Shown: in pieces, positions 19,691 to 60,474 of the stretch | How positions within the stretch are numbered: the first letter of the stretch is position 1 | Layout of the letters: the number at the start of each line of letters is the position of its first letter | Origin: Patescibacteria group bacterium | Lineage (GTDB): Bacteria > Patescibacteriota > Patescibacteriia > Magasanikbacterales > UBA922 | Length of the DNA: 64,000 nucleotides | Direction of reading: 5' to 3' | Assembly (NCBI GenBank): GCA_018823045.1 | Contig: JAHJIX010000013.1 | Coordinates: 21,125 to 85,124, forward strand | The notes under the pieces: generated by a model | The model's input: only the letters and a program-made list of their open reading frames with translations | Told to the model about the DNA's origin: nothing | Database searches by the model: none | Translations under genes and position numbers: made by a program

Positions 19691-19827
19691 AATATGTATA
19701 ATTAAGTATATCTAGGTTATCATAGTATTCTCTATTTCTCAAGAGAGTTATTTTATTATCTGATGTTATTTATTCGACACTAATGAAGTGAACACTTGTT
19801 TACTCGGCGCAATGAAGTGGAGCCGAG

Positions 19828-19900: not shown

Positions 19901-19998
19901 ATATTGTAATTACCATCTAGTGTCGAAATAGAACCAGTTATCCTCTCGTTCTATCTCCGCCCAATGCGGATCCGCCTTGGGCGGAAAGGAATACATAC

Positions 19999-20035
19999 AA
20001 AAAACCGCCTCGATTAGGCGGTTTGTATATTTTTT
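19999..20035. terminator. bidirectional intrinsic terminator (3' of ORF 20168..21769)
   Basis: ccgcctcgattaggcgg hairpin followed by a T-run. Confidence 0.7.
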
Positions 20036-20167
20036 GACTATACGAAACTACCCAATCTTTAAGAGACGGTTATTATTGCTATTATTTGTTCGTTGGTATT
20101 TCATATGTATTTACTATAGTATGTTTATTTTTATTTGTCAAATTTTTTTGTGGATGAACATTTTTTT

Positions 20168-21769: not shown

Positions 21770-21879
21770 ATAATTGTATTAAAAAAATAATCAATACTAT
21801 TATAATAACACATCCTTAGATTTAAATCTAAAGTAAAGGATGGATGAATACACTCAATGCACAAAATATAACAGGCAAT

Positions 21880-22596
21880 CTAGACACCCCCAAAGTAAAT
21901 ATCTTTTATTTTTTTACTTTTCAATATCTCTTTACCACCTACTAAAGCAACCGTTCCGTTCTCTAAGATATATGTCTTGTCAGCTATCTCCACAGCTTGT
22001 TTAGCATTTTGTTCAACCAAAATCACTGTTACTCCTCGTTTATTTATTTCAACTATTTTGGCAAAAACCTCTTTCATCATCTTGGGCGATAATCCTAAAG
22101 ATGGCTCATCTAATAGTAATAATTCAGGATTTTGAATTAAACTTCGTGCAATTGCTAACATTTGCTGTTGACCACCACTTAATGTTGCTGCATTTTGATT
22201 TTGTTTTTGTTTTAATATTGGAAACTTCCTATAAATATCCTCAATATTTTTGTTTATTAGTTCTTTCTCCTTAAACACAAAAGCCCCCATTTCTAAATTT
22301 TCTTTTACTGTCATATTCGTGAAAACTTGTCTCCCTTGCGGTACATAACTTATTCCAAAGTTAATTAAATCGTAGGTTGGAAGCTTTTTGATATTCTTAT
22401 CTTTAAAAAATATTTTTCCACTATTAATATCACACAAATTAAAAATACTTTTAAGTAAGGTTGATTTACCAGCACCATTAGGACCAATTATCGCTGTTAT
22501 TTCACCTGCAGCAAAAGACATGTCAATCTCCTTGATGACTTGACTCTTATTGTATCCTGATTGTAAATTTTTAATTTTTATCATATTATCCTTCAC
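21880..22596 (-). CDS. livF: branched-chain amino acid ABC transporter ATP-binding protein LivF
   Basis: Walker A GPNGAGKST; signature LSGGQQQMLAIARSL. Confidence 0.9.
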   Translation of the reverse strand: MKDNMIKIKNLQSGYNKSQVIKEIDMSFAAGEITAIIGPNGAGKSTLLKSIFNLCDINSGKIFFKDKNIKKLPTYDLINFGISYVPQGRQVFTNMTVKENLEMGAFVFKEKELINKNIEDIYRKFPILKQKQNQNAATLSGGQQQMLAIARSLIQNPELLLLDEPSLGLSPKMMKEVFAKIVEINKRGVTVILVEQNAKQAVEIADKTYILENGTVALVGGKEILKSKKIKDIYFGGV

Positions 22597-23335
22597 CTAA
22601 ATAAGCTTTCAAAACTTGTTTATTGTTCTTTATCTGCTTAGGAGTTCCTTCAGTTAAAACACTACCTTGATCCAGCACAATAACTCTATCTGCAATTCCA
22701 AGTGTAAAAGCCATATCATGTTCAATAAGCAATATCGTCTCTCCTTGTTTTTTCAAATCAAGAAGAATCTCTGATATTTTAGTTCGTAATTTAGGAGAAA
22801 CCCCAGCAACAGGTTCATCCAGCATTAAAAAGGAATGCGGATTAAGAATTGTTCGTCCTAATTCTATCAATCTTTTCTGACCATAACTTAAATCTTTAGC
22901 TAACACATTTTTAGTTTTTTTCATTCCTAACATTTCTAAAATCTTTTTAACTTTCTGAATTTTATCAGTCTGTTTAGGAGTTTTTGAAAACAAATTAAAC
23001 CAAAACTTAGTATCAGTATTATCTAATGCAAGTAATAAATTATCTTCTACTGTTAGATTTTCAAATAACCTTGCCTTTTGGAACAATCTTGATATACCAG
23101 CATTAGATACTTCTTCAGGAAGTGAATTTGTAATATCTTTCTGATCAAAAAAGATTTTCCCTGTATCAGGTTTTATTACACTAGAAATCAAGTTAAACAA
23201 CGTTGATTTACCAGCCCCATTTGGACCTATTAAAGCAGTAATGGTATTGGGTTCAACCTTAAATGAGCAATTATTTACTGCCTTTACACCTCCAAAGTTT
23301 TTACTTATTTTTTTTATTTTAAGCATATTATTCAA
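22586..23335 (-). CDS. livG: branched-chain amino acid ABC transporter ATP-binding protein LivG
   Basis: Walker A GPNGAGKST; LSYGQKRLIELGR signature. Confidence 0.9.
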   Translation of the reverse strand: MNNMLKIKKISKNFGGVKAVNNCSFKVEPNTITALIGPNGAGKSTLFNLISSVIKPDTGKIFFDQKDITNSLPEEVSNAGISRLFQKARLFENLTVEDNLLLALDNTDTKFWFNLFSKTPKQTDKIQKVKKILEMLGMKKTKNVLAKDLSYGQKRLIELGRTILNPHSFLMLDEPVAGVSPKLRTKISEILLDLKKQGETILLIEHDMAFTLGIADRVIVLDQGSVLTEGTPKQIKNNKQVLKAYLGEG

Positions 23336-24209
23336 GACTAACTTTACCGTAAAATCCTTTGGGCCTATACATTAAAATCAGTAATAACACCAAAGCATAT
23401 ATAATTTGCCTAACTGGGCCAACTACTGAAGACGAGAAACCAATAAAACGCAATGGCTCCGGCAATAAAACTAAAACAATCGTTGCAAGCACTGTTCCTT
23501 TAAGTGATGCAATTCCACCTATAATAACAATTGATAATATAGGAATTATCTGCATAAAACCAAAAGAAGAAGGATCAATAAAGCTTATATAGTGAGCGTA
23601 TAAACTACCGGCAATACCAGCAAAAAAGGCAGAAACAGCGAGACTATAACTCTTTATTTTAAAAGTATTCTTACCTAAAGTTCTCACAGCCAATTCATCA
23701 TCTCTAATAGCTTCTAAAACCTTTCCAAATGGTGATTTTACTATTTTATTAATAATTGCGTATGAAAAAACAGCAATAATACTGACAAAAAATAAATAGG
23801 ATGCATTACTTTTTATTTGCAAAATTCCTAAATCAGGTTTAGGAATACCAGCTAATCCTAAAGCCCCATTTGTTAAATCAGTCCAATTTAAGGCGATAGC
23901 ATATATGACAAAAGTAAATCCTAAAGTAGCCAATGCTAAATAATCCCCCTTTAGCTTATTTGTTGGGAACGCAAGCAAGTACCCAAATAGAGCACTCACA
24001 ATACCAGCCATTAAAAATGAAACAATAAAAGGCACACCATTTAATGTGAGTAATGCTGAAGTGTAAGCACCTATTGCATAAAATGCTATGTGACCTAAAT
24101 TAAGTAATCCTGTATAACCTAAAGCTAACTGCAATGATAAACACAGAATTAAATAAATTCCTATTAAAATTAAGAGATGAATAATATAAGCTGATAACAT
24201 AATTTCCAA
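23328..24209 (-). CDS. livM: branched-chain amino acid ABC transporter permease LivM
   Basis: 293-aa polytopic permease, overlapping coupling with livG. Confidence 0.85.
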   Translation of the reverse strand: MEIMLSAYIIHLLILIGIYLILCLSLQLALGYTGLLNLGHIAFYAIGAYTSALLTLNGVPFIVSFLMAGIVSALFGYLLAFPTNKLKGDYLALATLGFTFVIYAIALNWTDLTNGALGLAGIPKPDLGILQIKSNASYLFFVSIIAVFSYAIINKIVKSPFGKVLEAIRDDELAVRTLGKNTFKIKSYSLAVSAFFAGIAGSLYAHYISFIDPSSFGFMQIIPILSIVIIGGIASLKGTVLATIVLVLLPEPLRFIGFSSSVVGPVRQIIYALVLLLILMYRPKGFYGKVSLE

Positions 24210-25097
24210 TTAAATAATTTTGCCTGAAAAATCTTTTTTACCCAATATTCCTTGTGGTCTCAGTATCAAGAACATAAATAATACAATAAAAGCAATAGCG
24301 TCTTTATAGCCTGAAGGCAAAAACCAAATACCTAAGACTTCAATCAATCCTAATAGAAACGCTCCAATAATTGCACCTGGGACACTCCCAATACCACCAA
24401 TTATTGAGCCCGTAAATCCTTTGATTATTAAATTTGTCCCCATAACTGGATCTAGATTTTGCTCCATACTTATTAAAACCCCTGCAATACCTGCTACAGA
24501 AGAACCAATTATAAAACTCCAAGCATAAATTTGCTTTGATGAAATTCCAACTATTTCCGCGACATCTTTGTTGTTTGAAACGGCCCTCATTGCTTTGCCT
24601 AATTTTGTTTTTTTCATAAACAGCAATAGGCCCAAGAATAGAATTATAGCAGTGAATATTATTACAATTTGAAGTGGTGTAATCATTGCACCAAAAATAT
24701 TAATTCCAATACTACCTTCAAGAAAGTCGATTGTTTTAACACTCGGCCCAAAGAATAATAAGATTAATGACTCCAACAAGATAAGCAAGGCAACACTTGC
24801 AATCAATAAGATAACACTGCTCGCCTTTCTTTTTCTCATTGTTTTATAAACAAATTCATTCACAATCCAACCTAAACATCCAGCAAATATTATTGTAAAA
24901 ATTACAGATAAGCAAAAATTAATCCCCAAAAATGCAAACATTACATACAAAAAATATCCGGCAAAAGTCACAACTACTCCGTGAGCAAAATGAATAAATT
25001 TATTTGTTGAATAGATTAACGAAAAACCAGATGCAACTAATGCATATATGGCCCCTGCAATTAAACCATTCAATAATAGTTGGATAAAAATTGACAT
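24210..25097 (-). CDS. livH: branched-chain amino acid ABC transporter permease LivH
   Basis: 295-aa permease, adjacent to livM. Confidence 0.85.
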   Translation of the reverse strand: MSIFIQLLLNGLIAGAIYALVASGFSLIYSTNKFIHFAHGVVVTFAGYFLYVMFAFLGINFCLSVIFTIIFAGCLGWIVNEFVYKTMRKRKASSVILLIASVALLILLESLILLFFGPSVKTIDFLEGSIGINIFGAMITPLQIVIIFTAIILFLGLLLFMKKTKLGKAMRAVSNNKDVAEIVGISSKQIYAWSFIIGSSVAGIAGVLISMEQNLDPVMGTNLIIKGFTGSIIGGIGSVPGAIIGAFLLGLIEVLGIWFLPSGYKDAIAFIVLFMFLILRPQGILGKKDFSGKII

Positions 25098-25165
25098 ATT
25101 ATTATATTTTTAAAAAGAAAAGGACTCGAATATAGAACCCTTTTCTTTTTTTATAAATATGAATA

Positions 25166-26299
25166 TTATTTTGATCGAATCAAACTCCATTTGTTATCAA
25201 CAAATTCATATACATCATTGCCCAATTGTAACGCTCGGTCTTCAAACCCACTCGAATTAATTATTCCACTTCCTACACCATCATATTTTTTTAGCCCCTC
25301 AAATATACATTCTTTATCACCCGCACGACATTGTTCAAAAACATCTTTTAAGATAATCATTTGATCATATCCAATCATTGAATACGTAAGAACAATCCCC
25401 TCAGCTTTTTCATACTTCTGATTATATTTATCAGCAAACTCAGATTCAGGCAATGATTCAGGATCTACAAAATCAACACTCAATACATTTCCTTTTAACT
25501 TAGATGCTTTACTTGCTAAGCTCTCATTAAAAATACATTCTGAGGCAGTAGCACAGAAAAATGACATATCAAGCCCTAATTCATTTATTTGGTCAAACAT
25601 TTCAATATACTCAAAATCAATTCCAACAGTAAGTAATGCATCTACACCATCTTGTTTTGCTTTTAACAAGTGAGTTCTATAATCTTTTTCACCAAACTCA
25701 TACCAGTATTCTGAAATATCTAACTCAGCCTTTTTTGCTCCCTCAAGACAAAACTCATTATACCCAGTCTTTGACATGAGAACGCCAAGTTTTTTGTACT
25801 GGCTATTTTCTTTTGCATATCTAATTAAATCTTCACAACCAGTGAGAGAGTCAAAATTAATTTTGAACGTATAAGGATTGTCTAACACACTTCTAGCAAA
25901 AGACGCTGTGATTAAAGGAGTCTCTGCATTTTCTGAAATTGGATTCATTGCAATTGCTGAAATATGAAATAATGTAGTTAAAACATCTGGATTTTCAGTA
26001 TCAATGAGAAAATTGGCAGCAGTTGCACTTTTACCAGTATTCATACTGTCATCTTCAACTACTAGCTTTATGTTTTTCCCATTAATCCCCCCTTGTGCAT
26101 TAATTTCTTCAACAGCAAGTTCCATTCCTTGTACCCAAGGTTTTCCTAAACTAGCTCCTGGCCCAGATAAAGATGTTACTACACCTACTGTATATGTTTC
26201 ATCTTTATTTGTTTTGTTTTCATTTGCTATCAAGGATACTGCAATTATGATTACAACAGCAATTACCCCTATTAATATGCTTTTTTTCTTGTTGTTCAT
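25166..26299 (-). CDS. livK: Leu/Ile/Val-binding periplasmic substrate-binding protein
   Basis: 377 aa, signal/TM anchor, type I periplasmic-binding fold, first gene of the liv operon. Confidence 0.8.
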   Translation of the reverse strand: MNNKKKSILIGVIAVVIIIAVSLIANENKTNKDETYTVGVVTSLSGPGASLGKPWVQGMELAVEEINAQGGINGKNIKLVVEDDSMNTGKSATAANFLIDTENPDVLTTLFHISAIAMNPISENAETPLITASFARSVLDNPYTFKINFDSLTGCEDLIRYAKENSQYKKLGVLMSKTGYNEFCLEGAKKAELDISEYWYEFGEKDYRTHLLKAKQDGVDALLTVGIDFEYIEMFDQINELGLDMSFFCATASECIFNESLASKASKLKGNVLSVDFVDPESLPESEFADKYNQKYEKAEGIVLTYSMIGYDQMIILKDVFEQCRAGDKECIFEGLKKYDGVGSGIINSSGFEDRALQLGNDVYEFVDNKWSLIRSK

Positions 26300-26426
26300 A
26301 GTATGTTTATTTAATTAATTACCTATTACTATAGCACATTTTATCTGTTTTGTCAAGTCTTTTGTCATAATGCGCTATTTTATTTTATGAATATTTACGC
26401 TATTTTTATGCTAATTACAGGCATTC

Positions 26427-26455
26427 TTGACAAACACGCTCGCGTATAGTATACT
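26427..26455 (+). promoter_or_regulatory. sigma70-type promoter (TTGACA-17-TATACT) for the TrmB-family regulator
   Basis: TTGACA 26427-26432; TATACT 26450-26455. Confidence 0.55.
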
Positions 26456-26495
26456 ATATTTGACGATTTAATCGACAAAATAATTAACAAAACAT

Positions 26496-27239
26496 ATGCT
26501 TATAACTGAATATTTAGAAAAAATTGGACTTAGTAAAAAAGAAGCAAAAGTATACCTTGCTAATCTTGAATTAGGCCCCTCTTCTATAGCCCTTATTGCT
26601 TCACGTTCTGGTGTCAAACGAACAACAGTTTACGAAGTAATGAAATCATTAAAAGAAAAGCAATTAGTTTCCATTACTGGAAAAGGGAAAAAAATACTAT
26701 ATATAACGACAGAACCAGAAAAAATCAAAACGATACTAGAACAACAAATGACATTGTTTAGTGATATTCTTCCACAATTACGATCACTTTCAAAAACAGC
26801 GCGCAAACGCCCTACGATTCAAGTATTTGAAGGAATTGAGGGGCTCTATTCTATCTATGAAGATATTATAAAAGAAAAAAAGCAACTATGTTCTATTGTA
26901 GCTTTTTCAAAAATGCAATCTGATCTTTCAAAAAAAATTGCAGAAGAATTCGTAAAAGATCGTGTGAAGCATAATATATTTGCACAAGTTATTGCACCAG
27001 ATTCAAAAACTTCTATTGAATGGCAAAAAATTGATAAACAATCTGCACGAGAAATGCGCTTAATTGATAAAGAAAAATATCCATTTTCAATTGAAATTTC
27101 AATATATGGAAATAAAACAGCCTTTATTTCTTTCAAAGAAAATGAACTTTTTGGAGTAATTATTCAATCAGCAGAAATTACAAAAACCATGAAATTAATG
27201 TTTACGTTTTTTTGGGCATCACTCGGAAAACAAAAGTAA
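26496..27239 (+). CDS. TrmB-family transcriptional regulator
   Basis: N-terminal HTH LGLSKKEAKVYLANLELGPSSIALIASRSGVKRTTVYEVMKSL typical of TrmB. Confidence 0.75.
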   Translation: MLITEYLEKIGLSKKEAKVYLANLELGPSSIALIASRSGVKRTTVYEVMKSLKEKQLVSITGKGKKILYITTEPEKIKTILEQQMTLFSDILPQLRSLSKTARKRPTIQVFEGIEGLYSIYEDIIKEKKQLCSIVAFSKMQSDLSKKIAEEFVKDRVKHNIFAQVIAPDSKTSIEWQKIDKQSAREMRLIDKEKYPFSIEISIYGNKTAFISFKENELFGVIIQSAEITKTMKLMFTFFWASLGKQK

Positions 27240-27260
27240 TAATACTAAATGACAAAAATT

Positions 27261-27288
27261 AAAAACAGCCATATATATGGCTGTTTTT
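27261..27288 (+). terminator. intrinsic terminator of the trmB-like gene
   Basis: aaaaacagcc-atatatat-ggctgttttt. Confidence 0.7.
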
Positions 27289-27307
27289 AATTACTTTTCC
27301 TAAAATC

Positions 27308-27592
27308 CTATTTCCCAGACTTATTATTCCGTGTTCCCAGGCTTCGCTTTCTTGCCGCACCTGCGATACTTGTTGGTTTGGGTTTAAAGCCAATATTATT
27401 TTTGCTGTTACTACTAAGGTATCCCTTATTAGCAGTATCCTTACCCTCTTTTGGATTTCCATCCTTTGTTTCTTGTTGTCTTTGTTTTTTAAGAATTTGG
27501 CTTAACATAGATATATTTAATATAATTACATGTATAGAAACTACCATATATCTGTCGATTAGTAAAGGGGTAAGCGGTTTGTATCTTTTCAC
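27308..27592 (-). CDS. hypothetical small membrane/basic-tail protein (possible)
   Basis: 94-aa ORF overlapping the radical-SAM stop by 4 nt (ATGA coupling); N-terminal hydrophobic segment, K-rich tail. Confidence 0.3.
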   Translation of the reverse strand: MKRYKPLTPLLIDRYMVVSIHVIILNISMLSQILKKQRQQETKDGNPKEGKDTANKGYLSSNSKNNIGFKPKPTSIAGAARKRSLGTRNNKSGK

Positions 27593-28416
27593 TCCCGAAA
27601 AAGTACCCGTCCCTCTACTCCTTCCGCTCTACAAATTTTTTCAATCTCTGGTCTAAGCTTTTTCCAATAGTCGGTTTTTGAAAAATAAATCTTTTCATAC
27701 TTTAAAAGCAAATGTGGCCGTTCTTTTTTTAGCCAATCTTTTACCCCTGGCCATATCATCCCACGAATATTCAAACCATCAAACATATAAAAATTTACCG
27801 CATGCTTTGTCTTTTTTATTATAGTCTTCCAGTCTGTGAGATAAGGAAAGATTGGCGCCACAAAAACATAGGTTTTTATCCCCAAAGAAGAGAGCTCTTC
27901 AAGTACTTTTATTTTTTCTTCAAAAGAAGAGGCTCCTGACTCAATTTGTTTTCTTGCGATTTCAGAAGTAGTCGTAATTGATATACCTACTTGGCAATCC
28001 TTGAACTGCAAAAACAGGTCAGCATCTCTTAATACTAATTTTGACTTAGTAAGAATATTTAATCTTGGCTCAAGAGGAATAAGCTTTTCCAAAGTTTTTC
28101 GAGTCACTTCATACTTTTTTTCTATTGGCATGTACGGATCGGTAACAGAAGAAAAAGAAATCAGTTTATTTTTATACTTATCACTTTTTGTTGGTACTAA
28201 ATCTGGGGCATTTATCTTCACATCAACAAATCTCCCCCATTCTTCCTCATGGCCACTAAACTTTTTCATATAACTGGCATAGCAATAAGAACAGGCATGC
28301 GTGCAGCCTACATAAGGGTTGATAACATAATCTATCGTCGGAATTTTTGATGGACTGATTATTGATTTTGCTTGTATTTCTTTTATTATCATTTTGGAGG
28401 AGAATGAAAAAAACAA
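27589..28416 (-). CDS. radical SAM protein, SplB/DNA-repair-photolyase-like (COG1533 family)
   Basis: CxxxCxxC cluster motif VINPYVGCTHACSYCYA; 275 aa. Confidence 0.75.
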   Translation of the reverse strand: MFFSFSSKMIIKEIQAKSIISPSKIPTIDYVINPYVGCTHACSYCYASYMKKFSGHEEEWGRFVDVKINAPDLVPTKSDKYKNKLISFSSVTDPYMPIEKKYEVTRKTLEKLIPLEPRLNILTKSKLVLRDADLFLQFKDCQVGISITTTSEIARKQIESGASSFEEKIKVLEELSSLGIKTYVFVAPIFPYLTDWKTIIKKTKHAVNFYMFDGLNIRGMIWPGVKDWLKKERPHLLLKYEKIYFSKTDYWKKLRPEIEKICRAEGVEGRVLFRE

Positions 28417-28440
28417 AGATGTAGATTATTTGAATATTTT

Positions 28441-29037
28441 TTATTCCTCTAATTCTATCCTTCGACGACGTTCATCAAGAGTCTCCCCTTCATACATCCA
28501 ATACACTGTTCCTTGTACTTGATATTGATATCCCAATAGCTTTTGTGCAGAAGCCGAAGGGCTTGTAATTTCTCCATCAAATTCAATCAATCGTTTATCA
28601 ACAACCTTTGCAGTTATATTTTCATCATTAACAAAAACAAGTTCAGCTCCAACAGGTATATTTGCCATTTTAAAATTAAAAACAGATCTTCTTGTACGTG
28701 CTTGATTGAGAGCTTGTTGATCTTCTACCGATTCTACATAATCTTGCTTTGGTGTAACATTTTCTATTTCTGCAAGTTTAAGTGCTGATACCACTCGTTC
28801 AGGAGACAATTCAAAGAACTCTCGATTTGATCGTACTCGTAAATCAAGAAAAGCATCATGAAGTTGTTTTTCTACAAATTGTGAATCACTCACAGTACAA
28901 GCATAAAAACACTCAAAAGGAAGAGGTACACTGGTATTATCAAGAGTACGGATTCGTTGTTCTAAGTTTGTTGTTCGTCCTATTTTGATATAGCCAGGCA
29001 TGGCTTCGTTTATGAGGAGGTAGATTATTTGGGGCAT
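28441..29037 (-). CDS. T5orf172 (GIY-YIG-like, MUG113) domain protein
   Basis: IYLLINEAMPGYIKIGRTTNLEQRIRTLDNTSVPLPFE matches the T5orf172 core; 10 nt downstream of res. Confidence 0.7.
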   Translation of the reverse strand: MPQIIYLLINEAMPGYIKIGRTTNLEQRIRTLDNTSVPLPFECFYACTVSDSQFVEKQLHDAFLDLRVRSNREFFELSPERVVSALKLAEIENVTPKQDYVESVEDQQALNQARTRRSVFNFKMANIPVGAELVFVNDENITAKVVDKRLIEFDGEITSPSASAQKLLGYQYQVQGTVYWMYEGETLDERRRRIELEE

Positions 29038-29046
29038 ATTATATAT

Positions 29047-31764
29047 TTAAGAAAGTAAGGAAATCACATCTTTCACAGGACCCTTAAATTCAACATCCTC
29101 AAATTCTTCAAAATGTTTTTCTCCACATTTAATTTTCAATTTTTCTGAATCACGTAAATTTTCAGTTTCATTTTTACCTTTACTTTCTACAACAAAATAT
29201 ATTTTTTTATCTCCATCAAAAACAACTGCCCAATCTGGATTATATGAACCAATAGGAGTTTCAATTTTAAACCAATATGGTAATTTAATATAAAATTTCA
29301 CATCCTCATTTGATTCTAAATCCTGTGCAAACTTATTTTCAATATCAGAGTCACAAATAATATAATTATACAAAGTTTTTTCTTGATTTTGTACTTGATA
29401 CATATTATCAATATATCCCTCTAATTCATCATTTTCAAAACTTTTCATCTCCCAACTATCTCCTACTATTCTTTCATATTTAATACCATCTATCATCATT
29501 TTATTTAATACTAAATTAATTTTCAAAGAAAAAATATCAATAAACTGTTGAGGGTTTTTGAAAACTCCTTCAATCTTTCCTGATTCTTTAATAATTCTTA
29601 AAATAGTATTTTTAGTAAGATTTGTTTTATTTTGAATATTCTCTAAAATATTAGGTATTCTAAAATTATAAATACTTATATCCTTTTCTTTGAAACTTTT
29701 CAAATGACTATCTACTTTCTCTCGCGTAAGATTCAAACTTACTTTTGTATTTTGCAATTTTACTACTTTAATTTCTACATTTTCTAACTCTTGAGCACAT
29801 TTTTCAATTAATTCTTCTGTATTATACTCTACTTGATAACGAGTTTTATGTTTTATTTTATCCCAAAGCTCCTTAAAGTTTTCATCTAATGCATAAGATT
29901 TTTTCAAATGAACTTTTTTCTTTTTTGCTTTGTTTTTTATTCTTCCCGTAAAATTCACTCCACAATCTTCTTCAATCTCTGTTTGTAATGTTTTCGCGAA
30001 ATCCTCATAACTTTCATTAGCAATAACAGTTAAAACATTGATGTTTTCATCAAAAATACGTATGCCTTCTTGATTTACAGGTAAACGTAAACCACGCCCA
30101 ATTTCTTGGCGTTTCTTCATTTCTGAATGTGATTCATTTAATGTACAAATTTGAAATACATTTGGATTATCCCATCCTTCACGCAAAGCTGAATGAGAAA
30201 ATATAAAACGAAGTGGTTCATCTAAAGATAATAATTTTTCTTTATGCTTCATAATAAGAGCATAAGTATCATCATCAACTTTTGTATTTCCCTTTGTATC
30301 TTTTAATAATCCTTTTTTATCTTGAGAAAAATATCCATTGTGAATTTTATCGATATCATTAGAAAGAAGCCCTTTATATTTTGGATTTTCTTTGAAATTA
30401 TTACATATTTCTTCAAACCACTCTGCAAACTTTCCTTGTAATACCTCACCATCTTGATAATTTCTATAATTCGCAACTTTATCAATAAAAAATAAAGATA
30501 AAACCTTAATTCCTTTTCCTTGCAATTTTTTTTCTCTATCTAAATGATTTTGGATAGTCTTTTGAATTTGAAATTTCATTATTTCATCACGATAATCCCC
30601 CTCAGAATGTCCAACATAAATATTTTTTCCATTTGAAAGTCCTATCATTTCTCCATCAACATCAATTTCATCTATAATATAATTATTTTTATATAATTCT
30701 CTTTCTCCCGACAATTTATATAAATCATCTCCTACTTTAACAGTAATTATTTTTTTACTTACTCCATTTTTATTTCCTACATCAATTTTAACCTTTGCAT
30801 TTACTCGTCTTTTTTGTGCATGAACTGATTTCAATTCCACAAAAGCTTGATTATAATTTTCTTCACTTACAATAGAATCTACTTCAATCTTTTTTACCAA
30901 TCCTAAATCATAGGCATCCACAGGATCAAGTTTATAGACAAGATTATAATGATGTTTATGTGTAGCAGAATAACGAAGAGTACAAATAGGATTTAAATTT
31001 TTAATTGCTTTTTTTCGTATATCAGTTTCCATGTTTTGAGGTTCATCTACGATAACAATAGGTTTTACCCCTTGAATATATTCCATAGGTACTCCCCAAT
31101 CACTATTTTTATAGATAATATTTTTTCCCTTTTTACTTGCACTAAATTTCGCAAAAGAATCAATATTAATCACTAATATTTGAAGAGCATTTGTTGTAGC
31201 AAAATTCTTTAATTGTCCTCGTTTCTTTGGATCATATACATAGAAATCCATTTCTGGATTTTCATAGAGCATAGAAAAATGATCTTTTGTAATTTGAAGA
31301 TTTTTTATTACACCTTCTTTAATAGCAATACTAGGAACCACAATAACGAATTTTTTAAATCCATATTGCTTATATAATTCATGAATAGTACGCAGATATA
31401 CATAAGTTTTTCCAGTACCCGTTTCCATTTCTACTGAGAAGTTCATTCCTGAACTTAAACTAACAGTATTATCATCCCAAAGCTCTTCTTTTTGCCAAAT
31501 TAATTCTTTATTCCACAAATTATCTTCGTCTGAAATCTCAATGTTATTATTTTGTTGAATATCTATCAAATTTTTCTTTATAATTGCAGGCTCCAATAAC
31601 AATTTATTTCCAACCAAAAAACTATTTATAATAGGTAATTGGCCTAATACTTGTGATAATTCTAAAGAAAAGTCACTACCATTTGGCTGACCTTTAAAAA
31701 TATCTGTTATTGATTTTATAGCATCAAGCTGATATTGCTGTGATGGATCAAATTGAAGTTTCAT
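29047..31764 (-). CDS. res: Type III restriction endonuclease Res subunit (SF2 helicase-nuclease)
   Basis: 905 aa; Walker A ETGTGKTY; motif II VIVDEPQN; helicase motifs; C-terminal PD-(D/E)xK-like region. Confidence 0.85.
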   Translation of the reverse strand: MKLQFDPSQQYQLDAIKSITDIFKGQPNGSDFSLELSQVLGQLPIINSFLVGNKLLLEPAIIKKNLIDIQQNNNIEISDEDNLWNKELIWQKEELWDDNTVSLSSGMNFSVEMETGTGKTYVYLRTIHELYKQYGFKKFVIVVPSIAIKEGVIKNLQITKDHFSMLYENPEMDFYVYDPKKRGQLKNFATTNALQILVINIDSFAKFSASKKGKNIIYKNSDWGVPMEYIQGVKPIVIVDEPQNMETDIRKKAIKNLNPICTLRYSATHKHHYNLVYKLDPVDAYDLGLVKKIEVDSIVSEENYNQAFVELKSVHAQKRRVNAKVKIDVGNKNGVSKKIITVKVGDDLYKLSGERELYKNNYIIDEIDVDGEMIGLSNGKNIYVGHSEGDYRDEIMKFQIQKTIQNHLDREKKLQGKGIKVLSLFFIDKVANYRNYQDGEVLQGKFAEWFEEICNNFKENPKYKGLLSNDIDKIHNGYFSQDKKGLLKDTKGNTKVDDDTYALIMKHKEKLLSLDEPLRFIFSHSALREGWDNPNVFQICTLNESHSEMKKRQEIGRGLRLPVNQEGIRIFDENINVLTVIANESYEDFAKTLQTEIEEDCGVNFTGRIKNKAKKKKVHLKKSYALDENFKELWDKIKHKTRYQVEYNTEELIEKCAQELENVEIKVVKLQNTKVSLNLTREKVDSHLKSFKEKDISIYNFRIPNILENIQNKTNLTKNTILRIIKESGKIEGVFKNPQQFIDIFSLKINLVLNKMMIDGIKYERIVGDSWEMKSFENDELEGYIDNMYQVQNQEKTLYNYIICDSDIENKFAQDLESNEDVKFYIKLPYWFKIETPIGSYNPDWAVVFDGDKKIYFVVESKGKNETENLRDSEKLKIKCGEKHFEEFEDVEFKGPVKDVISLLS

Positions 31765-31892
31765 AAGTTATTTTTTCTAATATTTTTTTCTCTAGCTAAT
31801 TTAAAACTAGTTTAAATTAAAAGATAGACCTTAATTTAGATAAAAAACACACTCTCTAACTAATCTCTAACTAATTCAGATCTAATTTTGAA

Positions 31893-32420
31893 CTAGTTTA
31901 AATCTAAATTATTTATAATTTTTTCAACGAAAACAGTGCAAAAATGTAACATATTAATAAATATTTCCCAATGATTAAATAATGTATCAAATATCACCAA
32001 AAACAGAACTCCTAAAAAAATCTTTAATTTAAACAAATTATATAACTTTTGAAAAATAGTATTTATAATTTCTATAAAATCAAATCTATACTCATCTATT
32101 TTCTTTACAAAGATTCTTCCAATAACTAAAGAACCAATTAAAAAAACATATTCTTTCATATTTACATTTCCTGTTTTAGATAAAGCAGCAATAATAACGT
32201 ATCCAACAAGAATTAAGACAAAAGCAGATGTTGAAAAATTTCTATTAACAGTATTTATAAAATTTTCAGGAACACGACTCCAATCACCCCCAGAATAACC
32301 AGAAGGAAGCTCCTCTGCAGGAGCAGAATCAACAGCTGTAATATTTCTATTGTCTAAACCCAGAGGCACAAAATCTCGCAAATCATCGTAACCTATCCCT
32401 CTAGTTTCATTATCATCCAT
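31893..32420 (-). CDS. hypothetical 3-TM membrane protein embedded between mod and res
   Basis: 175 aa; soluble N-terminal ~60 aa then three hydrophobic helices; no homology recognised. Confidence 0.5.
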   Translation of the reverse strand: MDDNETRGIGYDDLRDFVPLGLDNRNITAVDSAPAEELPSGYSGGDWSRVPENFINTVNRNFSTSAFVLILVGYVIIAALSKTGNVNMKEYVFLIGSLVIGRIFVKKIDEYRFDFIEIINTIFQKLYNLFKLKIFLGVLFLVIFDTLFNHWEIFINMLHFCTVFVEKIINNLDLN

Positions 32421-32426
32421 ATCTAC

Positions 32427-33200
32427 CTAATTATCTAAACTAAAAAAATAATCAATAAATCCTTTAAATTTTTTTTCTATACTAGAACTACTCTCAAGAG
32501 CCCATTCTTTCAACTTATCTAAATTGTCAAAATTTAAATCTTTTTGACTTAAATCAATATCAAAATAGATACCACTCTTATGATTAAAACTATCATATAA
32601 ATCATTTTTAAATATTTTACTGATAACCTCATTCTTAGTCATAGGTCCTGTAGTAAAATTAACAAATTTTGCATCACTTTGCATATTTATTGCTAAAAAC
32701 CCAGTATCTACTATTTTTCCACCCATTTTCTTTTCTATTACACCTGAATCTTTCAACATTATGTTTTTATAAATACTTTTTACTTCATCTACACCAATTC
32801 CATATTTATGATAAAATATAGAACTTTTTATTCCTATCCGCGAAATATCACCAACTTTATATTTTTTAAATTCATCTAAAATTTCAAAAAGTTTATTTAT
32901 ATAATCTTTAAAATCTTCAAAATCGTTACTAACCTCTATTTGTAATCCAAAGTTTTCCCAACTAAAAAATAAAATTTTATCAAAATTATTATTTGCAATA
33001 TCAAACCGTGAACCAGTCAATTTAAGATTTTCCCAATCCATTTTCTTTATAATATAATCTCCCATTTCTCCTTTATAATCCATAAAAGTGAGATTTCTAT
33101 TTTTAAACCGTATTTCAAATGTATGCCTAGCAATAAAATGATCTTTTTGCTTTTTACCCATAAAAATAAAATTATATAACCTTAAAATCAATCTTTGCAC
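32427..33200 (-). CDS. hypothetical cytoplasmic protein embedded between mod and res
   Basis: 257-aa ORF (likely start MGKKQKDHF near 33161), K/D/F-rich, no recognisable motif; overlaps mod stop. Confidence 0.5.
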   Translation of the reverse strand: MQRLILRLYNFIFMGKKQKDHFIARHTFEIRFKNRNLTFMDYKGEMGDYIIKKMDWENLKLTGSRFDIANNNFDKILFFSWENFGLQIEVSNDFEDFKDYINKLFEILDEFKKYKVGDISRIGIKSSIFYHKYGIGVDEVKSIYKNIMLKDSGVIEKKMGGKIVDTGFLAINMQSDAKFVNFTTGPMTKNEVISKIFKNDLYDSFNHKSGIYFDIDLSQKDLNFDNLDKLKEWALESSSSIEKKFKGFIDYFFSLDN

Positions 33201-35163
33201 TTGCCATTTGCAAAAATGTATTTTTCTTTAATTGATCAAGTGCACCAAAAGCTTCATCAAGACATATAAATTTTTCTGGTTTACCTGCCAAAATAGCATC
33301 AATTAAATTTTTATTCACTCCATTTTCAAGACAAATAGCTAATTTACCATTATTAATAGAAAAATAACTCGTATTTCCAACATCCTTCTTTTCAACAGAT
33401 ACATTCAAATCTAAACCACTTTTCAAAACTAATTCATACAAAATGTTTTCTTGTGTAGAATCTTCTTTCACATTATCTACAAAAAAATCCATTTGTCTCA
33501 ATAATTGTTCTACATCTTTTACATCATTTCTCCAAATCTTGAAATTACTTTCTTCAAGTTTGAATACTTTAAAACCAAGATCAAAAGTATCATCTAATTG
33601 CTTTTCTTCTTTTATTTTCTTTCCAGCACGTCGAATACGTTCTTTTGCAATATCAGCAATTGTTTTATATCCTGCTTTATAAGCTTCACTTTTTTCATCA
33701 CAAAGTTCTGGAAGTTGCACAGATATACACTTACGATTTCCACCATGTTCAGCATTCAGTGCCATTACTGCGTGTGCTGTTGTTGCTGAACCTGCAAAGA
33801 AATCTAAAATCATGTCACCATCTTGAACTACAAAATTACATAATCTATTTAAAATATTAATTGATTTAGGGTTATTAAAAACTGATCTACCGATAAGATT
33901 ATCGACAATTTTAGAAGAGCTTCTACCATCCTCATAAATCATTGTTTTTAATGCATCCCTTGCATTTTCTAATCTTTTTTTAGGCTTAATAAGTACATTA
34001 TGATCTACCCCAAAAAGGATATTATCCTCTTTTATCATATTATCTAAAGTTTCTTTGGGAAACCTAAATCCTTTATCAGGAATTTTACAAACTTTTCCCG
34101 TTTCAGGATGAATAACATCATATCGATAACCTCCAAATTTTGTATTTGCAATATCACCATCATGAAAAACACCTCTTTTATCTACATTATCATAATGAGA
34201 AACTTTAGGTAATTCATTTTTATGTTCTTTTATCCATGTCCGTAATTCTTTTTGAATTAAATTTAAATTATTAATATATTTTTGTTTTAACTCATCATAC
34301 TTAATTTGTATTTTTAAAGCATTGTTATTTTTTCCAATCCAAAAACCCTGTTTAATTTTATCCTTAGCATAACAAATAATATATTCATGTTCAGTATTAA
34401 TTTGAGTTGGATTATTATCTGTAGCTGTTTGAATTATTAAACTACCCAAAAAATTCTCCTCCCCAAATATTTCATTCATTATCATCCTCAAATTATGTAC
34501 CTCATTATCATCAATACTCACAAAAATCACCCCATCGTCCTTCATCAAGTTTCTCGCTAAAAAAAGACGTGGATACATCATATTAAGCCAATCAGAATGA
34601 TAATGTCCTCTATCTTTTGAATTTTTCATCAGCCCATCATTCCTATAATTTCCTTCATCATCAACAATTCCAGCATCTTCCTCATAATCTGACTTTTTTT
34701 GTTTGAAATTATCATTATAAATAAAATCATTTCCTGTATTATACGGAGGATCAATATAAATCATCTTTACCTTTCCATAATACGATTTTTGCAAAACCTT
34801 TAAAACATCAAGATTATCTCCCTCAATAAAAAGATTTTCTGTTGCATCAAAATTCACCGACTCTTCTCGAATAGGTTTTAAAGTTGAAGTTGTAGGTTCT
34901 TGAATTACACGAAAACAATTACTTTTCCCTGCCCAATTCATTCCATATTGTTCTATATTCATCTCTACCTCATCTCCCAAGGTCTGTTTCAACCTATCAC
35001 AATCTATTTTACCTTCTGTAAAGATTTCGGGAAATTTTTCTCGTATCATTGCCAAAAGTTCTTCTTGAGCATTAAGTGATTTTCCATTCATTGTATTGTT
35101 TTTCATACTAAAATATTTCAATTTGTATAAATATAGAATAACGCGTATTCCACGGATTGTCAA
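33172..35163 (-). CDS. mod: Type III restriction-modification methyltransferase Mod (N6-adenine)
   Basis: DPPY motif IYIDPPYNTGNDF; SAM-binding region; likely true start MKNNTMNGKS at 35106. Confidence 0.85.
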   Translation of the reverse strand: MTIRGIRVILYLYKLKYFSMKNNTMNGKSLNAQEELLAMIREKFPEIFTEGKIDCDRLKQTLGDEVEMNIEQYGMNWAGKSNCFRVIQEPTTSTLKPIREESVNFDATENLFIEGDNLDVLKVLQKSYYGKVKMIYIDPPYNTGNDFIYNDNFKQKKSDYEEDAGIVDDEGNYRNDGLMKNSKDRGHYHSDWLNMMYPRLFLARNLMKDDGVIFVSIDDNEVHNLRMIMNEIFGEENFLGSLIIQTATDNNPTQINTEHEYIICYAKDKIKQGFWIGKNNNALKIQIKYDELKQKYINNLNLIQKELRTWIKEHKNELPKVSHYDNVDKRGVFHDGDIANTKFGGYRYDVIHPETGKVCKIPDKGFRFPKETLDNMIKEDNILFGVDHNVLIKPKKRLENARDALKTMIYEDGRSSSKIVDNLIGRSVFNNPKSINILNRLCNFVVQDGDMILDFFAGSATTAHAVMALNAEHGGNRKCISVQLPELCDEKSEAYKAGYKTIADIAKERIRRAGKKIKEEKQLDDTFDLGFKVFKLEESNFKIWRNDVKDVEQLLRQMDFFVDNVKEDSTQENILYELVLKSGLDLNVSVEKKDVGNTSYFSINNGKLAICLENGVNKNLIDAILAGKPEKFICLDEAFGALDQLKKNTFLQMASAKIDFKVI

Positions 35164-35226
35164 ACCTATAAAATGCTAAATTAAGATAAAAAAATGATAT
35201 TAGATCTATCATATTTAACAAAATAC

Positions 35227-35255
35227 TTGACAACTCAAGTACTTTACAATATACT
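35227..35255 (+). promoter_or_regulatory. sigma70-type promoter (TTGACA-17-TATACT) for the MarR gene
   Basis: TTGACA 35227-35232; TATACT 35250-35255. Confidence 0.5.
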
Positions 35256-35289
35256 AAACATATACTTGACTAATCAACTAATAATTATT

Positions 35290-35724
35290 ATGAATAACAC
35301 AAACCTCAACACACTCCTTCACCTCAATAAAGCACACACCGCCCTTACCAAACGATTTGATCGTGGTATGGGCAATGGTATTGGATTTAACGAATTTCTT
35401 ATTCTCTTTTATATTCATCAAGCAGACAATACACAACTCCGCCGAATTGACCTTGCCGAAAAAATAGGAATTACGGCATCAGGCATTACTCGCCTCCTCC
35501 TCCCTATGGAAAAGATAGGGCTTATACAAACAGTCGCAAATCAAGGAGATGATGCACGAGTACGTATGGTAAAAATAACAAAAGGAGGAAAAGAAAAAAT
35601 GAATGAAGCACAAGAGCAACTTGATCTCTTTCTTGCAGAAGTATTTAAATGTATTGATGATAAAAATAAAGAGCTCCTTTCTGACATGCTTATACAGATA
35701 GGTGGCAAAGCGTTGATGCTTTAA
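35290..35724 (+). CDS. MarR-family transcriptional regulator
   Basis: Winged-helix region LRRIDLAEKIGITASGITRLLLPMEKIGLIQT. The annotated ORF begins at 35194, but ATG 35290 (MNNTNL) fits the promoter. Confidence 0.7.
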   Translation: MNNTNLNTLLHLNKAHTALTKRFDRGMGNGIGFNEFLILFYIHQADNTQLRRIDLAEKIGITASGITRLLLPMEKIGLIQTVANQGDDARVRMVKITKGGKEKMNEAQEQLDLFLAEVFKCIDDKNKELLSDMLIQIGGKALML

Positions 35725-35752
35725 AATTTAAAAAGAAAATACCCTTTTTCCA

Positions 35753-36808
35753 TTACTCCTCTCCCTCCAATACCCTCTTGATCTCCCGGTCAAAATCTGA
35801 CTCAAAAAGTCTATCCTGCACAATTCTATATTTTTCAAATTGTGTTTCTGCATGTAACTTAGCTTGTTCACGACTCATCTTTCCACTATTCATCAAAATT
35901 TCTCTGTCATTAAATTCTAAAAAAGAATCAAGCCTTTTGCTCCAATCTTCCATAGTCATCGGAATATTTCTCTCTGCCTGCATTTCTGCATAATCCAAAT
36001 ACATAGAAACAAGTCTTTCGAGAAAATTTATTTCTTTTGAATTGAGGTAATTCTTTGCGATACTTACATCATATTTTTGAATTTTGCCATTTGGGGCATC
36101 AGCCCAACTGGTCAATCCCATATTTTCTTTTTCTGCATTCGCTCTTTCAACAATCAACTCTGCAGCGGTATGCCTATGTACTGCATAATGTAATTTATTT
36201 TGAACAATTTTAAAAAATGTTATTGTCGTCGGAGCAGAAGAATCATAATCAACACTCATGGCATAGATATCTGTTACTTTTTGGTAAAACATTCTTTCAC
36301 TCAATCGAATTTCTCTAATTTTTTGCAATTGACGCTCAAAAAAGACTTTATCAAATTGATTTGCTTTTTTGAGCCTCTCAGTGTCCATCGTCCACCCTTG
36401 AATCGTGTAATCTTTTACTATTTGCCTTGCCCATTTACGAAATTGCACGGCTCTTTCATTTTCTATTTTGAATCCAATAGAAATAATTGTCTGAAGATTA
36501 TAATGTGTTGCATTGTAATTTTTTCCATCAGAAGCAGTTATTAAGTATTGCTTAATAACTGCTTCATCAATTTCATTATCATCAGAAAGCCTTTTTAAAT
36601 GCTGATTGATTGCAGACACAGAAACTCCATACATTTCTGCCATCATCTTTTGAGTCATCCATATATTTTCGTCTTCATATCTCACTTCTATACTTTCAGG
36701 ATCATTCCCAGTAGAAGACACAAAAGTCAAATACTGTGCAGTACTTGCTTGTATCACTTGTGGAAATGATTGTTTCTTTTCTTTTTTTGACATAAAAAAT
36801 ACTGGCAT
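35753..36808 (-). CDS. RhuM-family protein (virulence/defence-island associated DNA-binding protein)
   Basis: N-terminal ENIWMTQKMMAEMYGVSVSAINQHLK and conserved core typical of the RhuM family. Confidence 0.7.
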   Translation of the reverse strand: MPVFFMSKKEKKQSFPQVIQASTAQYLTFVSSTGNDPESIEVRYEDENIWMTQKMMAEMYGVSVSAINQHLKRLSDDNEIDEAVIKQYLITASDGKNYNATHYNLQTIISIGFKIENERAVQFRKWARQIVKDYTIQGWTMDTERLKKANQFDKVFFERQLQKIREIRLSERMFYQKVTDIYAMSVDYDSSAPTTITFFKIVQNKLHYAVHRHTAAELIVERANAEKENMGLTSWADAPNGKIQKYDVSIAKNYLNSKEINFLERLVSMYLDYAEMQAERNIPMTMEDWSKRLDSFLEFNDREILMNSGKMSREQAKLHAETQFEKYRIVQDRLFESDFDREIKRVLEGEE

Positions 36809-36910
36809 TATATAAACACTCTTCTATACTGCCAGTATACACCCCAAAAAAGCCCAGTGTCAAACCAATAAAACACCCCTATATATAAGCAAATATATTA
36901 CAAAAGCAAA

Positions 36911-36938
36911 TTACTAGTATAATACGTTATACTAGTAA
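36911..36938. promoter_or_regulatory. perfect 11-bp inverted repeat operator (TTACTAGTATA-N6-TATACTAGTAA) upstream of rhuM
   Basis: Seen directly; overlaps a TATAAT-like hexamer. Confidence 0.5.
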
Positions 36939-37004
36939 TTTAAAACACCAATTTTACTGCTAAATTAAGCAATAAAAAATTCAATTTTCTTGTTAGAAAA
37001 AACA

Positions 37005-37040
37005 AAAAACAGCCTAAAATCACTATTTTTAAGCTGTTTT
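37005..37040 (-). terminator. intrinsic terminator of the small Cys-rich gene
   Basis: aacagcctaaaa / ttttaagctgtt stem with T-run. Confidence 0.55.
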
Positions 37041-37065
37041 CATATATTTTATGTATTTCAAATCC

Positions 37066-37233: not shown

Positions 37234-37289
37234 ATGTCCCGTGTATTAGAAATTATACTTTTAGTATAGCATATATTTTGTGACATCCC

Positions 37290-43050: not shown

Positions 43051-43051
43051 A

Positions 43052-60422: not shown

Positions 60423-60474
60423 ATAGATTGGTGTTATTTCCCTTATTATAGTGCAAAAAAAACAATACGTCAAC

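Follow-up and report, generated by a model that had tools for sequence, protein, structure and literature searches.

We describe here a block of genes in a 64,000-nucleotide stretch of DNA (the whole of which is hereafter called 'the window') from a Patescibacteria group bacterium (GenBank assembly GCA_018823045.1, contig JAHJIX010000013.1). Almost all genes of the window lie on the minus strand, and the block, at positions 27259-36944, is flanked on the left by TrmB and Liv-type ATP-binding cassette (ABC) genes and on the right by genes for a lipoprotein cyclophilin peptidyl-prolyl isomerase (PPIase), NrdG and NrdD. The block contains a Type III restriction-modification (RM) system's mod and res genes, and between these lie two open reading frames (ORFs), ORF-F and ORF-E (as a pair, F-E). 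Genes for a T5orf172 protein and a radical S-adenosylmethionine (radical-SAM) protein follow res, and genes for a MarR-family regulator and a RhuM-family protein lie on the other side of mod. The six families that a sequence-only reading of this DNA had named here (radical-SAM, T5orf172, Res, Mod, MarR and RhuM) were all recovered with Pfam or PADLOC models where that reading had placed them. Its label 'defence island' is fair for the content of the block, given that defence and defence-candidate genes cluster here around an intact Type III RM system. The inserted pair had been treated as a curiosity. We consider it the most interesting part of the block, and we favour, with considerable reserve, the view that F-E is an unrecognised defence candidate made of a sensor and a membrane effector, nested in RM operons and located, in the window, in a mosaic island around the intact Type III RM system.

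The mod gene (33172..35106, minus strand) encodes a Type III DNA methyltransferase of 644 amino acids (aa), or 639 aa in the NCBI call, which starts at 35091. The res gene (29047..31764, minus strand) encodes a 905-aa restriction subunit with superfamily 2 (SF2) helicase motifs (GTGKT, DEPQ) and a C-terminal PD-(D/E)xK endonuclease domain. Mod matches N6_N4_Mtase in Pfam (4e-35), MTase_III in PADLOC (6.7e-199) and the Mod subunit of EcoP15I (4zcf_A, 4.4e-106), while Res matches ResIII (2e-13) and RE_endonuc (8.6e-39) in Pfam, REase_III in PADLOC (6.8e-288) and the Res subunit of EcoP15I (4zcf_C, 2.7e-61). The translation of Mod shows the motif order of the β class, with 'IDPPYNTG' (motif IV, DPPY) ahead of 'DFFAGSATT' (motif I), and the translation of Res contains 'TGTGKT', 'VDEPQ' and 'NPDW...VVESKG'. 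Given this homology and the presence of the expected motifs, Mod and Res are clear EcoP15I homologues, and the Type III RM system, as judged from its sequence, is intact and looks functional. No simple-sequence tracts of the phase-variation type were found in mod or res. By homology, Mod would methylate one strand of a short asymmetric site, and the Res-Mod complex would use ATP, find unmethylated sites on incoming DNA and cut this DNA. The likeness to EcoP15I/EcoPI (PDB 4ZCF) extends over most of the length of both proteins and includes the mod→res order, the β-class motif order, the SF2 helicase motifs and the PD-(D/E)xK nuclease. The window differs in having two extra genes and a spacer inside the operon, a T5orf172 gene and a radical-SAM gene after res, and a divergent MarR gene in place of any known control element.

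Adjacent mod and res genes are the canonical Type III layout. In the window the two are instead separated by 1407 bp, comprising ORF-F, ORF-E and a spacer of 128 bp, although their strand and order are canonical and the insertion does not argue against the enzyme type. ORF-F (32427..33161, minus strand) starts 10 nt after the mod stop codon and ends 6 nt before the start of ORF-E (31893..32420, minus strand). The spacer between ORF-E and res (31765..31892) carries two TT(T/A)AAACTAGTTTAAA-type palindromes located 86 bp apart (31801-31816 and 31887-31902), and also a perfect 11-nt tandem repeat (TCTCTAACTAA, 2.1 copies, 31853-31875). It is missing from homologous operons elsewhere, in which the genes abut or, in one locus described below (L087), a gene for a 267-aa protein takes its place. 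A role as an internal promoter or operator of res is possible for the spacer, as is an origin as the scar of a lost gene.

ORF-F encodes a soluble protein of 244 aa, for which the start codon is the ATG at 33161 used in the called gene rather than a GTG that would give 257 aa. A profile search of 1.84 billion cluster representatives recovered 233 clusters of relatives at E ≤ 1e-3, all of them ~230-250 aa in length, and a word-indexed search recovered just nine relatives. In many loci the protein is conserved from end to end, at 35-66% identity. Those members that have a name are all 'hypothetical protein' entries from metagenomes, and the family was recovered only from uncultured organisms. 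By this sequence record, the ORF-F family is real but rare. The AlphaFold2 (AF2) model of ORF-F (predicted local distance difference test score, pLDDT, of 83.7; predicted template-modelling score, pTM, of 0.83) consists of two tandem β-α-β4-α halves. Three residues are invariant in the family (R108, G110 and D203) and two are near-invariant (E16 and D152), and all five are positioned on or beside β-strands. The model suggests that a conserved charged patch (E16, R108, D152 and D203), on or beside the β-sheet, could serve as a binding or catalytic surface.

Neither ORF-F nor ORF-E matches any family in Pfam, NCBIfam, PADLOC or PHROG. A sequence search of the PDB with the ORF-F profile gave nothing (best E value 0.72), and the best match to the ORF-F model in BFVD is an unnamed viral protein (template-modelling scores of 0.54 and 0.63). 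The family TIGR04255 was considered as an identity for ORF-F and set aside, since the window protein does not match it and just two of 78 family members do so, at an E value of 0.002, which indicates at most a remote relationship; a search of the literature on TIGR04255 found no paper.

ORF-E encodes a small membrane protein of 175 aa that, according to Kyte-Doolittle hydropathy, carries a polar and acidic N-terminal tail of ~60 aa followed by two to three transmembrane (TM) helices. An ORF of the same tail-plus-TM design (143-179 aa) lies within a few bases after F in every locus that could be read, namely the window and the loci numbered L087, L090-L092, L095, L097-L099, L101, L102, L105, L109 and L110, and in L105 the E-like gene is present as an uncalled ORF. 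A motif of the form F(S/T)x..IGY..I..FG is conserved in E across 11 loci. On this sequence evidence, F-E is to all appearances an obligate, conserved two-gene cassette, present in ~16 independent loci.

The genomic settings of the cassette carry the functional argument. Seven F-E loci lie in or beside Type III RM genes (the window, L087, L090, L092, L093, L094 and L098): in four the pair is between mod and res, and in the other three it follows mod on contigs that end before any res gene is reached (the contig of L090, for example, stops after E and that of L094 after F). Two Type III lineages, mutually only ~25-30% identical, share the layout mod-F-E-(x)-res. One of these includes the window and L087, a locus in a metagenome-assembled genome (MAG) of Peregrinibacteria whose proteins are 55% (Mod), 66% (F), 30% (E) and 68% (Res) identical to those of the window and which has one extra gene, for the 267-aa protein mentioned above, before res. 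The second lineage consists of L092, L093, L094 and L098, the Mod and Res proteins of which are ~25-30% identical to those of the window; in L092 the gaps between the four genes are 1-5 nt. Two further loci place F-E directly after other RM genes, L095 behind a Type II methylase and an MvaI/BcnI endonuclease and L097 behind an Eco57I-like methylase. With seven Type III loci and these two, F-E is a case of non-RM genes that are recurrently nested within RM operons.

The cassette also occurs without any RM gene in at least six independent loci. It is found in a cluster resembling a defence island with GIY-YIG, DUF1016, DUF2971, HNH, RhuM and PIF1-WYL genes (L101), beside AbiEii on a Rep3 plasmid-like contig with a resolvase nearby (L102-L104), beside MazE, TIR and AAA_13 genes (L105), directly behind a pair of XRE and Peptidase_M78 genes (L109), and beside a serine recombinase (L091). 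An identity matrix shows that the RM-embedded F proteins are not monophyletic, and that those of the non-embedded loci L091 and L110 interleave with them. Given this lack of monophyly, the cassette seems to enter and leave RM operons and not to have co-evolved with one RM lineage. As a separate observation, a pair of genes for an XRE helix-turn-helix protein and a Peptidase_M78 (ImmA/IrrE-like) protein is located directly upstream of mod-F-E-res in L087 (952-1780) and of the bare F-E pair in L109 (5207-5999). The divergent MarR gene occupies this regulator position in the window, such that the regulators are swapped and the cassette is kept.

We read F-E as a defence module because embedding in multi-gene defence operons predicts a defence function. 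Most genes nested within multi-gene defence systems turn out to be defence systems in their own right, and of the nine Hma-embedded candidates that were tested, seven were active (Payne et al. 2024, bioRxiv 10.1101/2024.01.29.577857). Type III RM was outside the coverage of that survey (bioRxiv 10.1101/2024.01.29.577857). Other RM types offer precedents, including PrrC, which is embedded in a Type Ic RM system and acts as an RM guardian (PMC12707154), and DarTG2, which is embedded in a Type I RM system under the control of RptR, a small repressor that binds palindromes (PMC12255303). In the scheme we favour, the pair would form an autonomous second-line defence of the abortive-infection type, co-transcribed with the RM genes, in which F would act as the sensor in the cytosol and E as the effector in the membrane. 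A phage that passed or disabled restriction would cause F to activate E, and the resulting membrane damage would stop the infected cell. Genes for T5orf172 and for a radical-SAM protein lacking its partner are appended after res, the divergent MarR probably acts on the mod promoter, and rhuM has its own promoter-like site and palindromes. The gene content, the homologies, the order of the operon, the conservation of the F-E pair and its repeated association with RM genes are read directly from the sequences; every functional step assigned to F-E, and the regulation, is something that we infer.

Several observations weigh against this assignment. The fold matches of ORF-F in the PDB, as found with Foldseek, are loose, consisting of pseudo-dimeric α/β saddles (RepDE, TBP and AdoMetDC) with template-modelling scores of 0.27-0.37, and the AF2 model of ORF-E is unusable (pLDDT 41.5, from an alignment of two sequences). 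Neither protein matches any of 5027 PADLOC models, even when distant family members are included. Genomic context was read for only ~16 of the 233 F clusters, and partly through RM-embedded seeds, so the fraction of loci with RM genes may be inflated. Moreover, in L099 F-E stands among ordinary metabolic neighbours (DegT aminotransferase and ETF genes), and in L110-L112 a gene for a CHAP peptidoglycan hydrolase follows E by 14 nt (L110, 6001-7972). The presence of this enzyme next to E hints at a cooperation between E and a cell-wall enzyme in some lineages, with a logic like that of holins and endolysins.

This last arrangement is among the reasons to consider that F-E may not be antiviral at all. 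The pair could be a selfish or cargo module, such as a toxin-antitoxin (TA) or addiction pair with E as the membrane toxin, or a hitch-hiker with a holin-like function in lysis or at the envelope. E does have features of holins and small membrane toxins, given that it is small, with two to three TM helices and a charged tail, and besides the CHAP neighbour there are loci in which F-E is near a resolvase and AbiEii on a plasmid-like contig, or near MazE. However, the F family was not found among the 2.9 million viral contigs of IMG/VR (searched with a narrower family alignment that gave eight metagenome loci), tblastn searches with the window F protein gave no match in the INPHARED phages or the PLSDB plasmids, and two distant family members gave none in PLSDB. 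These results speak against F-E as a cassette for phage lysis or as an addiction module common on plasmids, and the recurrent nesting in RM operons matches the guilt-by-embedding pattern of defence genes. TA-like and abortive-infection functions also overlap, so that the distinction is partly one of wording. We judge a non-antiviral role to be unlikely. A more mundane possibility, that ORF-E and ORF-F are spurious or decaying frames produced by an insertion that split a Type III operon, could be entertained on the grounds of their very low GC content and the lack of a family in four libraries of hidden Markov models. It is effectively refuted by the conservation data: F is a family of 233 clusters with 35-66% full-length identity and a confident structural model, E retains its architecture and its motif, and Mod and Res are intact.

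Two other proposals grant the pair a closer tie to restriction than our favoured scheme requires. F and E could belong to a four-gene subtype of Type III RM as integral accessory subunits and so form no independent system, acting for example in the tethering or gating of Res-Mod at the membrane, at the point of entry of phage DNA, or in the control of Res. The recurrence of the same position between mod and res in the two divergent Type III lineages would fit, as would the packing of the genes in L092 and L087, where gaps of 1-13 nt or overlaps imply one transcript and possibly co-translation, and a conserved extra gene is known from some Type III variants, such as a helicase-like ATPase 5′ of mod (PMC8259958). 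Against this, F-E is found at the RM-free loci and beside Type II and Eco57I-like RM genes, embedded and non-embedded F proteins interleave, and in the window the 128-bp spacer with palindromes of its own parts E from res. On these grounds we give the subunit proposal only a small chance. Similarly improbable in our estimation, although it is a special form of the defence reading, is the proposal that F-E represents a new class of 'restriction guardian', in which F would monitor the neighbouring restriction enzyme (of Type III in the window and of other types elsewhere) or a phage anti-restriction factor and, once restriction was blocked, would trigger E, leading to collapse of the envelope. 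That F-E serves as a sensor and membrane effector in defence, co-expressed with the RM enzyme and perhaps backing it up, is the interpretation we cautiously retain.

RexA and RexB of phage lambda provide an instructive comparison, as they form a two-component abortive infection system in which the gene for a soluble protein of ~250-280 aa is directly upstream of that for a polytopic membrane protein of ~145 aa. F-E shares with RexAB the order of a soluble and then a membrane protein and the proposed logic of a sensor acting on a membrane effector, and the likeness is one of architecture only. No sequence similarity or PADLOC match to RexAB was found, and no RexA structure is among the 50 PDB fold matches listed for ORF-F. 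RexAB is also borne on the lambda prophage and F-E is not. With PrrC of EcoprrI (Type Ic), F-E shares the nesting of a non-RM gene in an RM operon and the proposed role of a latent suicide effector that backs restriction (PMC12707154). PrrC differs in that one protein combines an ABC-ATPase with a tRNA nuclease and belongs to a Type I system, whereas F-E combines a soluble and a membrane protein that lack a nuclease or ATPase signature, and it occurs in Type III operons, beside Type II genes and also without RM. DarTG2, from an island of enteropathogenic Escherichia coli (EPEC), is likewise a two-gene module between RM genes, and its island is under a small repressor that binds short promoter palindromes (PMC12255303). 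It differs in consisting of a TA pair of an ADP-ribosyltransferase and a glycohydrolase within a Type I RM system controlled by RptR, in contrast to the divergent MarR and the Type III system of the window. The guilt-by-embedding (HEC/PDC) catalogue rests on the same inference that we make here, and the T5orf172 (PDC-S57) and RhuM (PDC-S05) proteins of the window belong to it, whereas F and E match none of its models. In the literature on genes located between mod and res, we found only the helicase-like third gene 5′ of mod (PMC8259958).

The remaining genes of the block are of more familiar types. T5orf172 (28441..29037, minus strand, 198 aa, GIY-YIG-like; Pfam T5orf172 at 8.5e-17) lies 9 nt downstream of res and is a full-length member of the PADLOC candidate family PDC-S57 (PDLC05041, 1.4e-72; residues 2-195 aligned with profile positions 5-207 of 212). 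The RhuM-family protein (35753..36808, minus strand, 351 aa, or 346 aa in the NCBI call; Virulence_RhuM, PF13310, at 2.6e-103) is a full-length match to the candidate family PDC-S05 (PDLC04851, 8.6e-140). The PADLOC run that the sequence-only reading had recommended for the region matched REase_III, MTase_III, PDC-S57 and PDC-S05. Both PDC families derive from guilt by embedding and are candidates rather than validated systems (bioRxiv 10.1101/2024.01.29.577857). Downstream of res in the Peregrinibacteria locus L087 is a gene for a GIY-YIG/DUF4357 protein (PDC-S14), the C-terminal part of which resembles the C-terminus of PDC-S57, and so a GIY-YIG-like accessory gene after res is a recurring theme. 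RhuM genes were also seen near F-E in the unrelated Pseudomonadota locus L101 (9198-10217) and near a true radical-SAM mobile pair on a Bacteroides plasmid (L113, 7508-8344), and in variable regions of this kind RhuM looks like a common passenger.

The stand-alone radical-SAM gene (27589..28416, minus strand, 275 aa, COG1533-type; Pfam Radical_SAM at 5e-14) is 24 nt downstream of T5orf172, and in the NCBI annotation it starts at 28392 and encodes 267 aa. It had been called SplB-like, a description that does not hold, given that the spore photoproduct lyase model (TIGR04070) scores 22.3 bits against a cutoff of 400 and Pfam SPL (PF20903) 15.9 against 27; the protein shares with SplB only a general COG1533-like core. 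Its inclusion among the defence-associated families is also unsupported, and we regard it as a partner-less relative of 'radical SAM mobile pair protein B'. Its nearest annotated relatives are plasmid-borne Bacteroides proteins of this type, which are ~40% identical over 98% of its length. Membership in the mobile pair family itself was rejected, because the protein scores 218 bits against a cutoff of 410 for TIGR04470, its nearest NCBIfam model. The mobile pair as a system (TIGR04470/04471/04472) was rejected as well, since there is no protein A in the block and the MarR protein reaches 20.9 bits against 240 for TIGR04472. The Bacteroides plasmid carries a true pair with protein A, and the window gene stands without protein A and without the TIGR04472 regulator.

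The MarR-family gene (35290..35724, plus strand, 144 aa; Pfam MarR at 2e-06) is divergent from mod, and the region between them (35135..35280) contains promoter-like sites for mod (35163→35135, minus strand) and for marR (35227-35255, plus strand) along with two operator-like palindromes, TACTTGACAACTCAAGTA (35224-35241, overlapping a -35 element) and TACTTGACTAATCAACTA (35263-35280). The corresponding 18-bp palindrome TACTTGA-N4-TCAAGTA has three matches in the window, as compared with 0.34 expected by chance. From these sequence features MarR is the presumed repressor of the region and probably controls the mod promoter, and autoregulation together with the control of mod is plausible. Upstream of rhuM (36799..36941) there is a promoter-like site (36863→36834, minus strand) and an inverted repeat (36799-36838) that contains TATACTGCCAGTATA. 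The palindromic operator that the sequence-only reading had listed for the block is a perfect inverted repeat with 15-nt arms (AAATTACTAGTATAA/TTATACTAGTAATTT) and a 4-nt spacer at 36908-36941, and this palindrome accounts for the end coordinate that had been given to the block. Three matches to the sequence TATACT-N3-AGTATA were found in the window where 0.19 would be expected by chance; two of them fall within 430 bp around the right border, one before rhuM (36825-36839) and the other after the PPIase stop codon (37254-37268).

The borders of the block had been described as clean intrinsic terminators rather than tRNA genes, and both parts of this description stand. At the left border is a perfect 36-nt palindrome with arms of 18 nt (27257..27292, both strands), which resembles a bidirectional intrinsic terminator and is predicted to serve both trmB (plus strand) and the res-T5orf172-radical-SAM transcript (minus strand). 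At the right border a 15-pair hairpin with a T-run follows the PPIase gene (37005..37041, minus strand) and is likewise similar to an intrinsic terminator. The nearest tRNA gene is a tRNA-Asn at 19827-19900 (minus strand). The 296-bp gap between the left terminator and the stop codon of the radical-SAM gene (27293-27588) includes an NCBI-called ORF for a basic, low-complexity protein of 66 aa (27308-27508, minus strand) that has no family match. No Rfam match was found in this gap, as those at E ≤ 1 are at chance level only, and its folding z-score of -1.96 is unremarkable.

Base composition separates the block into unlike parts. The whole block had been described as more AT-rich than its flanks, and its GC content is indeed 0.295, compared with 0.3445 for the window. 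However, the whole deficit sits in the mod-F-E-res core (29047-35106, 6 of the 9.7 kb), which at 0.270 is the lowest 6-kb stretch within the 64 kb. Each core gene has a GC content of 0.24-0.29 (0.268 for res and 0.238 for ORF-F), which is 4-6 standard deviations below the per-gene background of 0.364 ± 0.019. The outer 3.6 kb is native-like, both in the part with the radical-SAM and T5orf172 genes (0.345) and in that with the MarR and RhuM genes (0.330), and the single genes give 0.347 (radical-SAM), 0.362 (T5orf172), 0.384 (MarR) and 0.336 (RhuM). The contrast with the flanks is also incomplete, because the left flank with liv and trmB (20000-27258) is itself GC-poor at 0.311. Within the core, the GC content at the first and second codon positions (GC1 and GC2) is lowered as much as that at the third (GC3, 0.15-0.17 against 0.24 ± 0.05), and with a distance of 0.10 in synonymous codon usage Res and Mod fall inside the range of native genes. 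Within the block, the GC analysis that the sequence-only reading had proposed finds a deviation in the 6-kb core only, and the codon usage of Mod and Res does not deviate. The low GC content of the left flank was noted separately: it falls from ~0.36 to 0.31 exactly at the tRNA-Asn gene (19827-19900, minus strand) and stays low through to 27258. The stretch from 19827 to 27258 contains a gene for a 533-aa protein without a Pfam family (20168-21769), a five-gene Liv-type ABC transporter and trmB. For a genome of the Candidate Phyla Radiation (CPR), an ABC importer of branched-chain amino acids is atypical, and this 7-kb stretch beside the tRNA gene may itself have been acquired.

The claim that the block had been acquired horizontally is best divided along the same line. 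A core with 55-68% identical Mod, F and Res proteins exists in another CPR class among unrelated neighbours (L087, where mod-F-E-(extra gene)-res is GC-poorer than its own flanks and the neighbours are wholly different), and therefore the core must have been transferred at some time; acquisition by horizontal transfer is what we infer. For the block as a whole, acquisition is no more than a possibility: the composition of the four outer genes is native, and the genomes searched gave no relative without the block. Similarly adverse is the outcome of the search for an integrase, a transposase, a tRNA border, and flanking or border repeats or att sites of ≥11 nt, none of which was found at the block. 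Among 185,579 species genomes a scan with the PPIase gave 80 loci, the best of them only 51% identical (Falkowbacteria), and none showed synteny in tblastn searches with 21 window proteins. Contigs with identical TrmB, PPIase or F proteins come from the same species only and always carry the block, which is present in the MAG GCA_018814165.1 (JAHJAC010000020.1), in a second MAG (GCA_018824665.1) and in two Logan assemblies.

It is accordingly possible, though we doubt it, that the block is a long-resident variable region and that the low GC content of its core stems from proteins rich in Lys, Asn and Ile rather than from a foreign origin. The equal lowering of GC1, GC2 and GC3 and the native-range codon usage of Res and Mod are what this would predict, and the native-like outer genes, the lack of an integrase, tRNA border or flanking repeat, and the presence of the block in all same-species contigs agree with it. 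Against it stand the related core in Peregrinibacteria, which has other neighbours and is GC-poor there too, and the fact that no other 6-kb stretch of the window is as poor in GC as the core. The block, on a Patescibacteria (CPR) chromosome, is best described as a defence island of mosaic build, with a mobile mod-F-E-res core and with accessory and regulator genes that vary by host. Some of the same-species contigs end within the block. Both contigs from GCA_018824665.1 (L002 and L107) end inside res, and the contigs from SRR2544004 (L108, L004 and L006) end in the left hairpin (~27286), in mod and in ORF-E. These ends probably reflect the behaviour of assemblers at palindromes or at low coverage rather than strain heterogeneity.

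Elsewhere in the window, two adjacent genes at 41551-44626 (499 aa and 524 aa) each encode the iPGM_N domain of cofactor-independent phosphoglycerate mutase, as a tandem duplication or a split arrangement. A match to the class A RNase P RNA at 60513-61040 spans 528 nt for a model of 367 positions and therefore has large insertions. It overlaps the 5′ end of an ORF at 59004-60707 (minus strand), the TTG start of which is therefore probably wrong.

A defence island centred on a Type III RM system is in itself ordinary, and part of what is gained here is the correction of annotations, given that the radical-SAM protein is neither SplB nor a member of the mobile pair and that only 6 of the 9.7 kb are compositionally foreign. 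The F-E pair is of wider interest. It lies outside Pfam, NCBIfam, PHROGs and PADLOC and nevertheless turns up next to three different kinds of RM system as well as in other settings linked to defence, and it continues the known theme of RM operons with defence genes inside them, here with Type III RM and in CPR bacteria. If the guardian proposal in particular were true, Type III RM would have in F-E its first described guardian, and CPR bacteria their first characterised defence module. If F-E does act in defence, whether or not as a guardian, guilt by embedding would extend to Type III RM systems, prokaryotic immunity would gain a new family of protein folds, and mod-F-E-res would provide a clonable four-gene operon with which to study layered immunity in the tiny genomes of CPR bacteria, whose phage defences are poorly known.

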